This document shows, one piece after another, positions 29,391-32,370 of a DNA stretch of 64,000 bases. The notes below the pieces were generated by a model. That model had not been told where the DNA came from, searched no databases, and worked only from the letters and a program-made list of their open reading frames with translations. The stretch is taken from assembly GCF_055900595.2 (NCBI RefSeq), contig NZ_CM148325.1. One strand, 5' to 3'. Position numbers and translations under genes: made by a program. Numbering within the stretch: the stretch's first letter is position 1; every line of letters begins with the position of its first letter.

Positions 29391-30019
29391 TATACGTTAA
29401 GATGCAACTACAGCAGAAATTGCCACTGTTAATTTTTTCATCGTGAGCCCTTTTATTTGAACTATTATTTAAAAATGATGTCACTGCACTATAAATATTC
29501 ATCCAATCAATGAGATTATTTCAAGATGTAAGTTTTAGTTTCTCATTTAAATTGTGAAGTAGATCCCTATCTTTATCTGAACTGTTTCTATTGCACACAA
29601 TGCATGACTATTTTGTGAACGAATATAAATTTGGTAGTCAAATTATATTAAAGGTTGTTATTTATGATTGACTCATAATTTATTTATTTAATTTAAATAG
29701 CCTAGAAATAACCATGGAAATTATTTGCATGATGTTTGTTTGGATTTATTAATGTAATTGAGGTGGTTTTATTTAATACGCAATATAGCGCCGCTTGATA
29801 TTAGTTCTATTTTTTTTGCGTAAGATAGATGAGACAAACAGAGACGCATAATGGTTTGCAAGGCTCTAATACTTTGATGTTGAGGATGTGATGGGGCATG
29901 TACGGGGCATAGTACAATGATGTCCATGCTGGTGTAGATAATCTCCAGGCTTATCCGGTGCGCCGTAAAACCCCGTCCTTCAGGGCAGGGATATAAGGCG
30001 CGGTTTTCCACCTGACCAG

Positions 30020-30443
30020 GTGTTTGCTGTTGTTCAATGTATTGGCGGATGACGGATATTGGCGCACCTCCGCAGCTACTGGCAAAATAGCCAGCACTCC
30101 ACAAAACGCCTTTGTAGTAATACCTGACTGCAATATCTGGTCGATCTCGTCGCAGTCACCTACCCGATACGCCTTTGAGGCTGTTTACCAGACTGGATAT
30201 CGCCAGTTTGGGAGGATAGTTAATTAACAAATGGACGTGATCTGGTTCGCCATCCATTTCAACCAGTTCAGCTTCAAAATCAGCGCATACATTTGAAAAG
30301 TAAGCGCGTAGTTTTTCTGTCGCGTCATGGTCAAAAATCTGACGTCGGTATCTGGTGACAAAGACCAGGTGAACATGCATCAGGAAAACACAATGCCTTC
30401 CACGCCGGATATCGGTTTCTTTTTTCACAGACCAAAGTATCAT
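30020..30443 (-). pseudogene. tnpA: IS200/IS605 TnpA (HuH Y1 transposase) interrupted by an in-frame TGA after codon 95
   Basis: N-terminal 95 aa carry the HuH motif (HVHLVF); TGA at 30156-30158; the same frame continues ...YYYKGVLWSAGYFASSCGGAPISVIRQYIEQQ (conserved TnpA C-terminus). Confidence 0.75.
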
Positions 30444-30450
30444 TTGGCCT

Positions 30451-31659
30451 GTGAAACGACTACAGGCATTTAAATTCCAGTTAAGACCAGGTGATCAACA
30501 GGAGTGTGAAATGAGGCGCTTCGCAGGCGCATGTCGTTTCGTTTTCAATCGTGCTCTGGCGCTTCAGAATGAGAATCATGAGGCCGGTAATAAATACATC
30601 CCTTACGGGAAAATGGCTTCCTGGCTGGTTGAGTGGAAAAATGCCACTGAAACGCAATGGCTTAAAGATTCTCCCTCACAGCCATTGCAACAGTCACTGA
30701 AAGACCTTGAGCGGGCTTACAAAAACTTCTTCCGGAAGCGGGCTGCTTTTCCCCGATTCAAAAAGCGGGGACAGAATGATGCATTCCGCTACCCGCAGGG
30801 CGTTAAGCTCGATCAGGAAAACAGCCGTATTTTTCTGCCGAAACTGGGCTGGATGCGTTACCGCAATAGCCGTCAGGTCACGGGTGTTGTGAAAAATGTC
30901 ACTGTCAGCCAGTCCTGCGGTAAGTGGTACATCAGTATTCAGACAGAAAGTGAAGTATCCACTCCGGTTCACCCTTCAGCATCAATGGTCGGGCTGGATG
31001 CTGGCGTGGCTAAACTCGCCACGCTGTCAGATGGCACAGTCTTTGAGCCTGTAAACAGTTTTCAGAAAAACCAGAAGACGCTGGCGAGACTTCAGCGACA
31101 GTTAAGCCGCAAGGTCAAATTCAGCAACAACTGGCAGAAGCAGAAACGCAAAATACAGCGACTGCATTCCCGTATCGCAAATATCCGCAGGGACTACCTT
31201 CACAAAGTCACAACGACCGTCAGCAAAAACCACGCAATGATAGTCATTGAGGATTTGAAGGTCAGCAACATGTCAAAGTCAGCAGCGGGTACGGTCAGCC
31301 AGCCGGGGCGCAATGTCCGGGCAAAATCAGGTTTAAACCGTTCGATACTGGATCAGGGCTGGTATGAAATGCGCCGCCAGCTTGAGTACAAGCAGCTCTG
31401 GCGTGGCGGTCAGGTGCTTGCTGTTCCGCCAGCGTACACAAGCCAGCGTTGCGCGTGCTGTGGTCATACAGCGAAAGAAAATCGCCTGTCACAAAGTCAA
31501 TTCAGATGCCAGGTATGTGGATATACAGCGAACGCCGATGTAAACGGCGCTCGTAACATTTTAGCGGCGGGGCACGCCGTTCTTGCCTGTGGAGAGATGG
31601 TGCAGTCAGGCCGCCCGTTGAAGCAGGAACCCACCGAAATGATTCAGGCGACAGCCTGA
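30451..31659 (+). CDS. tnpB: TnpB (IS605 OrfB) RuvC-like RNA-guided endonuclease, apparently intact
   Basis: 402-aa ORF with RuvC-I (GLDAG), RuvC-II (IVIEDLKV), zinc finger (CACCGH...CQVCG) and RuvC-III ([10 protein letters not shown]). GTG start at 30451; an ATG at 30511 is the alternative. Confidence 0.85.
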
Positions 31660-31698
31660 ACGTAGCAGGGATCCTCGTCCTTCAGGGCGTGGAGGATG

Positions 31699-32370
31699 TC
31701 AACAAACAGGTTGAATTAACTCCGCGCCCTGGTTTTTGACATTACCTACCGCGCGCGATACCGGGTGCCAGGTGAACTGGTTTGCTGGCACACAGCCGTT
31801 GGTAGCAATTTCTGATGCTTCTTTACCGCCAATCTCTTGCCGCATCCATTCCCGCGCAGCTTCTGGCGACAGTACCAGCGGGCGGCGGTCATGAATATCT
31901 ACCAGACCCTGGTCTGCTGCTGCAGTGACAATTAAAAATCCTTCGGCTTCGTCACCGCGCTCAAACGGTGTGCTACCTATCGCGGCCATAAAAACAGGTT
32001 GTCCGTCAGCACGATAGATAAAATAAGGCTGTTTTTTGTCGCCTTCTTTTTTCCACTCAAACCAGCCATCGGCAAAACAGATTGCCCGACCATGTTGCCA
32101 GAGCGGTTTAAACATACGACTGGTGGCCGCAGTTTCTACGCGGGCGTTAATCAGCGGCGGTTTATCCCACCATCCGGGAGCATATCCCCAGAAAACCGGA
32201 TCCAGATGAAGGTGTTCATCACGTTCACTGAGCAGAAGAACTTTGGTTCCCGGCGCGACGTTGTATCTGCCAATGGGTTCGGGATCATAGGGAATATCGC
32301 GTTCAATATCTTCCGCGAGAAGCGCAAGGTAATCTTCACGCGTTTGGGATTGGGCAAAGCGTCCACACAT
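31699..32370 (-). CDS. yedK: SOS-response-associated peptidase (SRAP) YedK
   Basis: Start trimmed to MCGRFAQ (catalytic Cys2). Confidence 0.85.
   Translation of the reverse strand: MCGRFAQSQTREDYLALLAEDIERDIPYDPEPIGRYNVAPGTKVLLLSERDEHLHLDPVFWGYAPGWWDKPPLINARVETAATSRMFKPLWQHGRAICFADGWFEWKKEGDKKQPYFIYRADGQPVFMAAIGSTPFERGDEAEGFLIVTAAADQGLVDIHDRRPLVLSPEAAREWMRQEIGGKEASEIATNGCVPANQFTWHPVSRAVGNVKNQGAELIQPVC

Follow-up and report, generated by a model that had tools for sequence, protein, structure and literature searches.

What drives two genes whose annotated start codons stand almost back to back, and where does each of them really begin? The question is raised by a copy of the insertion sequence IS609 in a stretch of 64,000 nucleotides from contig NZ_CM148325.1 (NCBI RefSeq assembly GCF_055900595.2); this whole stretch is referred to as the window, and positions are counted from its first letter. 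The element carries a transposase gene, tnpA, on the minus strand and a gene for a TnpB-family endonuclease, tnpB (insQ), on the plus strand. At their junction CAT at 30441-30443, an ATG on the minus strand, is followed by the 7 bp TTGGCCT (30444-30450) and then by GTG (30451-30453), and the open reading frames listed for the region, 95 amino acids at 30156..30443 (minus) and 402 amino acids at 30451..31659 (plus), begin at these two codons. GTG 30451 is the first possible start codon after the upstream stop, and an ATG follows in frame at 30511. The positions and the 7-bp figure that a sequence-only reading of the junction had given agree exactly with the sequence and with the open reading frame list. 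It proposed that promoters and ribosome-binding sites of the two genes must overlap the opposite gene or, alternatively, that tnpB starts at ATG 30511, and it named alignment of the TnpB N-terminus with orthologues as the check. The answer reached here, to which we give a probability of about three in four, is that the junction is the control region of an IS609 copy from which tnpB is expressed, from GTG 30451, on a leaderless mRNA driven by the -10 box TATCAT.

The two annotated starts are those in general use. The Prokaryotic Genome Annotation Pipeline (PGAP) places both of them, 7 bp apart, in NZ_CP025913 and other E. coli copies; in NZ_CP025913 the product named 'RNA-guided endonuclease InsQ/TnpB family protein' is read from the GTG, and the tnpA pseudogene begins at ATG 30443. 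The annotation of K-12 MG1655 is the same in this respect, with yncK (1503218..1503649, minus strand, a pseudogene) and insQ (1503657..1504865, plus strand) again 7 bp apart.

The start of tnpB is best judged from its relatives. A tblastn scan of one genome per species gave 80 loci whose TnpB is 58-95% identical, and almost all of the matches begin at query residue 1. The 72 non-redundant relatives outside Escherichia, 37 with a divergent tnpA and 35 without, form the set for all counts of tnpB starts. Among them GTG 30451 aligns with ATG in 69, with GTG in two and with ATT in one, an in-frame stop often lies just 6-24 nucleotides upstream, and the N-terminal peptide M(K/Q)RLQA(F/Y)K(F/Y)xL is conserved. 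The protein matches the Pfam families PF01385 (OrfB_IS605, 1.6e-34), PF07282 (Cas12f1-like_TNB, 2.4e-24) and PF12323 (HTH_OrfB_IS605, 6.6e-14), the last aligning amino acids 1-48 with profile positions 1-47 of 47. Its alignment to the structures of ISDra2 TnpB (8bf8, 8exa and 8h1j; 8e-55) pairs residue 3 with residue 3 and is ungapped; in ISDra2 TnpB, the WED beta-barrel has its strand beta1 at residues 1-12, and residue 13 opens the REC domain (PMC10097598). The RuvC motifs GLD183AG, VIE267DL and NAD363VN place D183, E267 and D363 on the catalytic motifs of ISDra2 TnpB, and the zinc-finger CxxC pairs at 334 and 353 are intact.

Selection on the first codons gives the same picture. Nei-Gojobori proportions of nonsynonymous (pN) and synonymous (pS) differences were counted in 17 comparisons with enterobacterial relatives. 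Over codons 2-13, pN is 0 in 11 of the 17 and at most 0.07 in the others save the most divergent (0.16), at pS of 0.12-0.75; over codons 2-20, pN/pS is similar to that of the remainder of the gene. Among the Escherichia copies pN of codons 2-13 is 0 in all three comparisons, and codons 22-400 have pN of 0.009-0.024 and pS of 0.04-0.12, or about 0.2 as a ratio, which marks purifying selection on tnpB within Escherichia. Orthology, selection and the domain and structure alignments show, on these comparative grounds, that tnpB starts at GTG 30451, and the orthologue alignment named as a check comes down on the side of that start. By the same comparison the GTG is the derived state and ATG the ancestral codon. 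Calls of a 421-amino-acid TnpB in metagenomes were considered as a longer form and rejected, as they are gene-caller extensions upstream into the frame antisense to tnpA.

What precedes the start of tnpB in relatives is a promoter element and not a ribosome-binding site. A TAnnnT hexamer stands exactly 6 or 7 nucleotides before the start in 61 of the 72, and a match to TATAAT in at least five of six positions is found there in 60, where the background is 0.26% per position; the 6-7-nucleotide spacer between box and start is not conserved, and the box is kept even in derivatives that lack tnpA. None of the 72 has GGAG, GAGG or AGGA at -18 to -4. Because a -10 box 7 nucleotides from an ATG that lacks a Shine-Dalgarno sequence is the signature of leaderless mRNA, the arrangement in relatives points to mRNAs of this kind.

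In K-12 the predicted start has been mapped. Kim et al. 2012 (Tables S1 and S4) list for ydcM, the insQ of current annotation, at 1501681..1502889, a transcription start at 1501681 on the plus strand with 14 reads and a 5' untranslated region (5'UTR) of 0; the upstream string given for it ends in ...AAAGTATCATTTGACCTG, and ydcM is among the 18 leaderless E. coli mRNAs of their Table S4 (PMC3415461). The same base was recorded independently in BW25113 by Romero et al. 2014 as a 5' end enriched by tobacco acid pyrophosphatase (TAP), FWD_(II)-1501681 (PMC4681348). With the offset of 1976 between U00096.2 and NC_000913.3, calibrated on racR and dicA, position 1501681 becomes 1503657, the first base of the GTG of insQ. 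As this start falls on the G, there is no leader in which a ribosome-binding site for tnpB could lie, and the proposal that ribosome-binding sites overlap the opposite gene is not supported for tnpB, on this ground and on the count of zero in 72 relatives. The start mapped in K-12 is presumably also used in the window strain. RNA polymerase on TATCAT (30438-30443) would initiate 7 nucleotides downstream, at the G of the GTG; with neither a 5'UTR nor a Shine-Dalgarno sequence, the ribosome would have to begin on the 5'-terminal codon, and translation of tnpB would thus begin on 5'-GUG. Folding is consistent with this, in that the first 50 nucleotides of the leaderless transcript are nearly unstructured (-2.4 kcal/mol), and an RNA that starts 40 nucleotides further upstream has the GUG buried in a 13-bp stem.

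Leaderless mRNAs are known from other mobile elements of E. coli, among them lambda cI, the tetR of Tn1721 and the prophage genes racR, dicA and ymfK (PMC4681348, PMC3415461), and as in those genes transcription of tnpB, in K-12, starts on the first base of the first codon with no Shine-Dalgarno sequence. Unlike them, tnpB has a 5'-terminal GUG rather than AUG, encodes a nuclease rather than a repressor, and belongs to an arrangement conserved in the form of a divergent gene pair, the other member of which is presumably leaderless as well.

The best surviving alternative for the N-terminus is that E. coli ribosomes translate tnpB chiefly from ATG 30511 (Met21), by way of the AGGAG before it, with a 60-nucleotide leader and a product of 382 amino acids. 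The AGGAG (30500-30504) has the optimal 6-nucleotide spacing to the ATG, and codon 21 is ATG in 64 of the 72 relatives. A leaderless GUG is, moreover, much less efficient than AUG in E. coli (PMC9031893, PMC8459731), and in a K-12 transcript from 1501325 (28 reads) the GUG would be hidden within a 13-bp hairpin, with the downstream AUG still usable. The 20 codons upstream of Met21, however, are conserved as protein, with the absence of amino-acid change in codons 2-13 described above, and they encode WED strand beta1 together with the start of REC, so that the shorter product would be a truncated protein that lacks part of the beta-barrel. Codon 21 is CTG, ATA, TTG or TTA in the other eight relatives, and a Shine-Dalgarno-like motif (GGAG, GAGG or AGGA) precedes it in only 18 of the 72; about half of the enterobacterial relatives have CAA GAG where the window has CAG GAG, and the AGGAG is thus not conserved. 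Together with the purifying selection on tnpB within Escherichia (pN/pS about 0.2), this conservation argues that the 402-amino-acid TnpB would be the functional form. ATG 30511 is an internal methionine codon of tnpB, the alternative start offered by the sequence-only reading falls away, and translation chiefly from Met21 is regarded as unlikely.

The tnpA side of the junction changes when the orthologous start is located. In the 37 relatives with a divergent tnpA, of which 31 have an intact TnpA of 137-138 amino acids, the conserved tnpA start aligns with codon 6 of the window frame as counted from ATG 30443, that is, with GTG 30428. This codon lies 22 bp from the tnpB start, and a spacing of 7 bp overstates the crowding of the two genes. 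In the relatives the two starts are 20-23 bp apart, with 22 bp at 16 loci. Since all 37 have conserved starts at this distance, the spacing in IS609 is not due to chance, and since its length is not a multiple of 3, the gap is non-coding. ATG 30443 depends on the box TATCAT, whose reverse complement is ATGATA; the box TATAAT gives ATTATA, which holds no start, and ATG 30443 is absent from most relatives, Escherichia sp. L006 included. By this comparison the annotated tnpA start is probably five codons too long, though IS609 might conceivably have adopted the upstream ATG secondarily.

Within the gap, each gene would have a -10 box of its own. A minus-strand TAnnnT (TATACT, TATAGT or TATATT) stands 6-8 nucleotides before the tnpA ATG in 32 of the 37 relatives, which suggests that tnpA, too, may be leaderless there. 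The consensus of the module is CAT-AGACCAA-AGTATAAT-N7-ATG, in which AGTATAAT holds TATAAT on the plus and TATACT on the minus strand: the two hexamers share a TATA core, are offset by 2 bp, and each lie 6-8 nucleotides from their own ATG. The predicted distance between the two transcription starts is 21-24 bp, with a mode of 23, and 23 bp is among the preferred spacings of bacterial bidirectional promoters with overlapping -10 elements (bioRxiv 10.1101/2020.01.31.928960, PMC12825309). The overlapping hexamers on opposite strands, the TATA core and the predicted spacing are shared between the bidirectional promoters of Warman et al. and the IS609 relatives. Unlike the promoters of Warman et al., both predicted starts of the IS609 family coincide with start codons, and only one of them is mapped, in K-12. 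Both -10 boxes lie inside the gap, and only putative -35 regions would reach into the opposite gene.

The literal form of the sequence-only reading, in which ATG 30443 and GTG 30451 are both true starts and each gene has a conventional promoter, 5'UTR and ribosome-binding site inside the other, so that the 5' ends of the transcripts overlap at length in antisense, can also be weighed against this comparison. PGAP and the K-12 annotation do use both starts, a weak AGG lies 5 nucleotides upstream of ATG 30443, and a quasi-palindrome at 30423-30456 could, in a longer RNA of the minus strand, fold into a hairpin that occludes the tnpA start (z = -3.25). Set against this are the K-12 transcription start, which coincides with the G of the GTG and leaves tnpB without a leader, and the lack of any Shine-Dalgarno-like sequence in the 72 relatives. 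ATG 30443 is missing in most relatives and in L006 (ATT ATA), where the conserved tnpA ATG lies 15 nucleotides further in, and because the gap varies from 20 to 23 bp, conservation as coding sequence does not extend to the five additional codons (MILWS). Relatives outside Escherichia do not conserve the palindrome, and no nearby minus-strand start has been reported in K-12. This arrangement is accordingly held to be improbable.

Several points weigh against the leaderless reading of tnpB and the promoter module. The K-12 transcription start is transferred to a strain that differs by 1 base in the 7-nucleotide spacer, and that start is itself weak: it has 14 reads (PMC3415461), falls in class II, where bulk RNA-seq shows no step for it (PMC4681348), and is not listed in a Cappable-seq supplement. 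No -35 element can be recognized for tnpB, and a consensus promoter scan made no sigma-70 call at the junction, which it would miss because the -35 element is absent. Leaderless initiation on a 5'-terminal GUG is poor in E. coli, where AUG is strongly preferred (PMC9031893, PMC8459731), and the 5'-AUG expected of a leaderless gene, found in 69 of the 72 relatives and in the E. coli plasmid copy L091, is GTG in the window and in the other chromosomal Escherichia copies. With a strong AGGAG-N6-AUG in frame 60 nucleotides downstream, the protein could partly or mostly be the 382-amino-acid form. A search of the literature found no ribosome-profiling or N-terminal proteomic record of insQ, the TRAINSPOTTER supplement does not contain insQ, and a full-text search for IS609/insQ and yncK/ydcM returned nothing on the start site. 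For tnpA, a minus-strand transcription start near 1501658 is not reported in the K-12 data (PMC3415461, PMC4681348); its half of the module is argued solely from conservation of sequence, and the K-12 tnpA box is degenerate (GATACT). The relatives, finally, are linked by phylogeny and their counts are not independent events, though the spacer beside the box has fully diverged among them.

In the window copy tnpA is a pseudogene, by an internal TGA, the loss of its stop codon and a Pro-to-Ala change in the WSPGYF motif at about 30093-30095 (relative to the copy L088), and PGAP concurs. Pfam Y1_Tnp is matched on both sides of the internal stop (5.7e-26 and 4.1e-8), and the HVH motif and the tyrosine of IRQYIEQQ are retained. 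Because the stop codon is lost (TAG to CAG), the frame runs through the left end, with its hairpin, into flanking DNA. An intact tnpA is found in E. coli at locus L088 (NZ_CP010240), whose control region is identical to that of the window. As a separate observation, loss of the stop codon is common to several other E. coli copies (L002, K-12, L089 and L092), and it may have spread with transposing copies. A decaying relic, in which neither gene is productively expressed and the two GTG codons, degenerate -10 box and weak start amount to neutral decay that makes the start question functionally meaningless, would fit the three tnpA lesions here, the tnpA pseudogenes in many E. coli copies, the tnpB pseudogenes in some and the low read counts, but it is very improbable given a tnpB that is intact at 402 amino acids in the window and in the great majority of copies, a pN/pS of about 0.2 among Escherichia copies, a RuvC triad and zinc-finger cysteines that are intact, and the intact tnpA of L088 behind the identical control region.

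In the Escherichia IS609 the module is weakened, with GTG at both starts and TATCAT as the tnpB box; the A-to-C change in that box gives rise to the minus-strand ATG 30443. The changes to GTG presumably attenuate expression, and the absence of a -35 element, the weak transcription start and the GTG on both genes suggest that IS609 is attenuated.

A further step, and one that we put forward only tentatively since we think it rather less likely than its negation, is that the cassette is a self-contained expression switch common to the family. RNA polymerase would open one -10 box per event because the boxes overlap, and each initiation would yield either a leaderless tnpA transcript or a leaderless transcript that serves as tnpB mRNA and omegaRNA precursor, never both. 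If this were true, translation of these genes would be free of Shine-Dalgarno sequences in hosts from Enterobacterales to Burkholderiales, the Escherichia IS609 would have been throttled at translation by AUG-to-GUG changes in both genes, and the betaproteobacterial derivatives that lack tnpA would have set a leaderless tnpB promoter under a LexA-type box.

The coordinates of the features discussed above, and of the element as a whole, are collected in Table 1.

Table 1. Features of the IS609 copy and its tnpA-tnpB junction, in window coordinates.
Feature	Position	Strand	Remarks
IS609 (IS200/IS605 family)	29955..31702	none	1748 bp, ends in TCAA
TTAT target tetranucleotide, left flank	29951..29954	+	Comparison of empty and occupied sites; megablast matches to copies elsewhere start at 29950/29951
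Left-end subterminal imperfect hairpin motif CCCCGTCCTTCAGGGCAGGGA	29971..29991	+	Direct repeat D4
CAG where relatives and L088 have the tnpA stop	30012..30014	-	
tnpA (Y1 HUH transposase) pseudogene, orthologous extent 138 codons	30015..30428	-	Pfam, relatives, L088, PGAP
In-frame TGA at a conserved Leu codon, upstream of the catalytic Tyr (IRQYIEQQ)	30156..30158	-	
Quasi-palindrome TTTCACAGACCAAA-GTATCA-TTTGGCCTGTGAAA	30423..30456	none	14-nt arms; spans both start codons
Orthologous tnpA start, GTG	30426..30428	-	ATG in 36/37 relatives and in E. coli L089
Control region between the orthologous starts, 22 bp	30429..30450	none	
Putative tnpA -10 box GATACT	30436..30441	-	7 nt upstream of GTG 30428
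tnpB -10 box TATCAT	30438..30443	+	7 nt upstream of GTG; matches K-12 in sequence and position
ATG taken as tnpA start by the sequence-only reading and PGAP	30441..30443	-	Reverse complement of bases 4-6 of the tnpB -10 box
tnpB transcription start, first base of GTG	30451	+	Transferred from K-12
tnpB (insQ), 402 aa, TnpB-family RNA-guided endonuclease	30451..31659	+	Pfam and ISDra2 structure matches
AGGAG-N6-ATG, Shine-Dalgarno-like motif with internal Met21	30500..30513	+	AGGAG 30500-30504; in-frame ATG 30511-30513
Probable omegaRNA scaffold (tnpB 3' end and right end)	31532..31718	+	Guide from the flank, 31703 onward
Right-end subterminal imperfect hairpin motif CCTCGTCCTTCAGGGCGTGGA	31673..31693	+	Direct repeat D4

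The two spacers of the module differ in conservation. The one on the tnpA side, AGACCAA(A/G) (window 30429-30437, AGACCAAAG; loci L008-L085), is strongly conserved even among distant relatives, unlike the one on the tnpB side, and candidate reasons are that it is a discriminator, a site for binding of a regulator, or part of the spacer of the tnpB promoter. A -35 element for tnpA (TTG) was considered as a cause of the synonymous bias toward CAA at Gln5 of TnpB; the bias does not differ between loci with tnpA (35 of 37) and loci without it (28 of 35).

Of the 14 positions in each arm of the quasi-palindrome across the junction, 13 are paired in the window, 12 in K-12 and 11 in Escherichia sp. 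L006; other relatives lack it. It was considered as a conserved RNA hairpin or operator that would occlude both starts, and was rejected as a feature of the family, the tnpB-side spacer being unconserved and the pairing incomplete even within Escherichia. That spacer seems to have become more nearly complementary to the conserved spacer on the tnpA side, a drift for which chance, templated mutation or an operator could account. In IS200, translation of tnpA is repressed by a stem-loop in the 5'UTR, and a hairpin can likewise be drawn over the annotated tnpA start of IS609. Unlike that of IS200, the IS609 hairpin is specific to a lineage and lies upstream of the presumed leaderless tnpA start, which would put it outside that mRNA.

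Additional observations concern transcription of tnpB. A second plus-strand start in K-12, at U00096.2 1501325 and the stronger of the two with 28 reads, lies inside tnpA, 356 nucleotides upstream of insQ (PMC3415461). Its equivalent in the window is 30095, where C stands instead of G; the transcript would run antisense to tnpA, and in it the tnpB GUG would lie within a hairpin. A 'terminator-like' hairpin at 30447-30467, returned by a promoter and terminator scan, was set aside as not functional, its 5' arm lying upstream of the mapped transcription start. In two loci without tnpA, Citrobacter amalonaticus L007 and the E. coli plasmid pLR4-171k_NDM (L091), the left end is fused upstream of a tnpB that starts with ATG in the form TAAAAT-N6-ATG; because a -10-like box thus lies 6 nucleotides upstream in both, the leaderless layout has been either re-created or kept after loss of tnpA. 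The motif CTGT-N8-ACAG (for example, CTGTATATAATTACAG) covers the tnpB -10 box, 1-10 nucleotides before the ATG, in 8 of 77 relatives (L042, L043, L045, L053, L061, L066, L074 and L076), all without tnpA and mostly betaproteobacteria. It resembles a LexA (SOS) box in form, with a background of 0.056 per kb, and suggests that TnpB may be regulated by DNA damage in this subgroup.

At the other end of tnpB, a probable omegaRNA scaffold is assigned from the known organization of TnpB elements (PMC10097598). A search of IS609 against Rfam gave nothing above the gathering thresholds; matches below them fall at 31532-31715 on the plus strand, to HgcC (19.3 bits), sot0042 (16.3 bits) and RAGATH-18 (25.4 bits). 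HgcC and sot RNAs are TnpB-associated RNAs in archaea.

The limits of the element were set by comparison with an empty site (L004), which shows a clean insertion 3' of TTAT with no target duplication; by analogy with other IS200/IS605 elements, TTAT is presumed to be the target-adjacent motif of TnpB. The copy has no terminal inverted repeats, as is characteristic of the family, and the D4 copies at its two ends share one orientation and fold as imperfect hairpins whose energies are not distinguishable from those of shuffled sequences. By megablast the region is found in 5,415 of 5,426 complete E. coli genomes, with at least 80% query coverage in 4,312; thousands of E. coli copies match it at 98-100% identity, the one in NZ_CP025913 at 100%. 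Over all of its length it is about 98% identical to the element that K-12 annotates as 'insertion sequence:IS609', which has the same length of 1748 bp.

The K-12 copy (yncK pseudogene and insQ/ydcM, b1432; 1503161..1504908 of NC_000913.3) is thus the same element, and like the window copy it has a GTG start for insQ, a tnpA ATG annotated 7 bp away and an internal TGA in tnpA. The K-12 element lies between ydcL and ydcO, whereas that of the window lies at the yedK stop codon; the 7-nucleotide spacers differ by 1 base (TTGGCCT in the window, TTGACCT in K-12), and there are a few amino-acid differences, D15G among them. With ISDra2 and IS608, IS609 shares a Y1 HUH TnpA, subterminal hairpins, insertion 3' of a short target (here TTAT), and a TnpB with WED, REC, RuvC and TNB domains that aligns from the first residues. 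The right end of IS608 also finishes in TCAA. In ISDra2 and IS608, tnpA and tnpB are co-oriented, whereas in IS609 they diverge from a common 22-bp control region; they are divergent in the IS605 of Helicobacter pylori as well.

The insertion has altered the neighboring gene. IS609 interrupts the TGA that ends yedK (minus strand; junction 31696-31705), where CCT GTT TGA TAA of the empty site L004 (around 900-910) has become CCT GTT TGT TGA. YedK gains one C-terminal Cys, its new stop codon being supplied by the TCAA at the IS609 end, and PGAP gives yedK 223 codons rather than 222 because of this displacement. A 15-nucleotide inverted repeat, 87% complementary, pairs 31696-31710 (ATGTCAACAAACAGG, the last 7 nucleotides of IS609 and flank) with 31728-31742; the partner lies 17 nucleotides downstream in yedK, and part of the repeat pre-exists in the empty site and is extended by the IS609 end.

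Much of this rests on earlier work. IS609, both of its annotated starts and their 7-bp spacing are on record, as is the leaderless start of ydcM in a supplementary table of 2012, and it is established that mobile elements carry leaderless mRNAs and that bidirectional promoters can have overlapping -10 boxes. The 20-23-bp module as a family-wide feature was not found described; a full-text search for 'leaderless' together with 'TnpB', of incomplete coverage, returned incidental co-mentions only. Current understanding is not overturned, and the arrangement is largely an ordinary one.

For annotation, conservation settles the N-terminus of the IS609 TnpB in favor of the 402-amino-acid GTG form. 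The attenuated look of the E. coli copies, with their GUG starts and weakened box, fits the low transcript counts. Conservation of the 20-23-bp module suggests that in IS609-like elements, from Enterobacterales to Burkholderiales, it may drive a divergent pair of genes that both seem to be leaderless, so that a widespread IS605-type clade would make the leaderless mRNAs of its transposase and its nuclease from one small bidirectional promoter. The arrangement is relevant to the expression of such TnpBs from their native sequence and to the balance between tnpB mRNA and omegaRNA and, if true, would explain how these elements function in distant hosts without ribosome-binding sites matched to each host.

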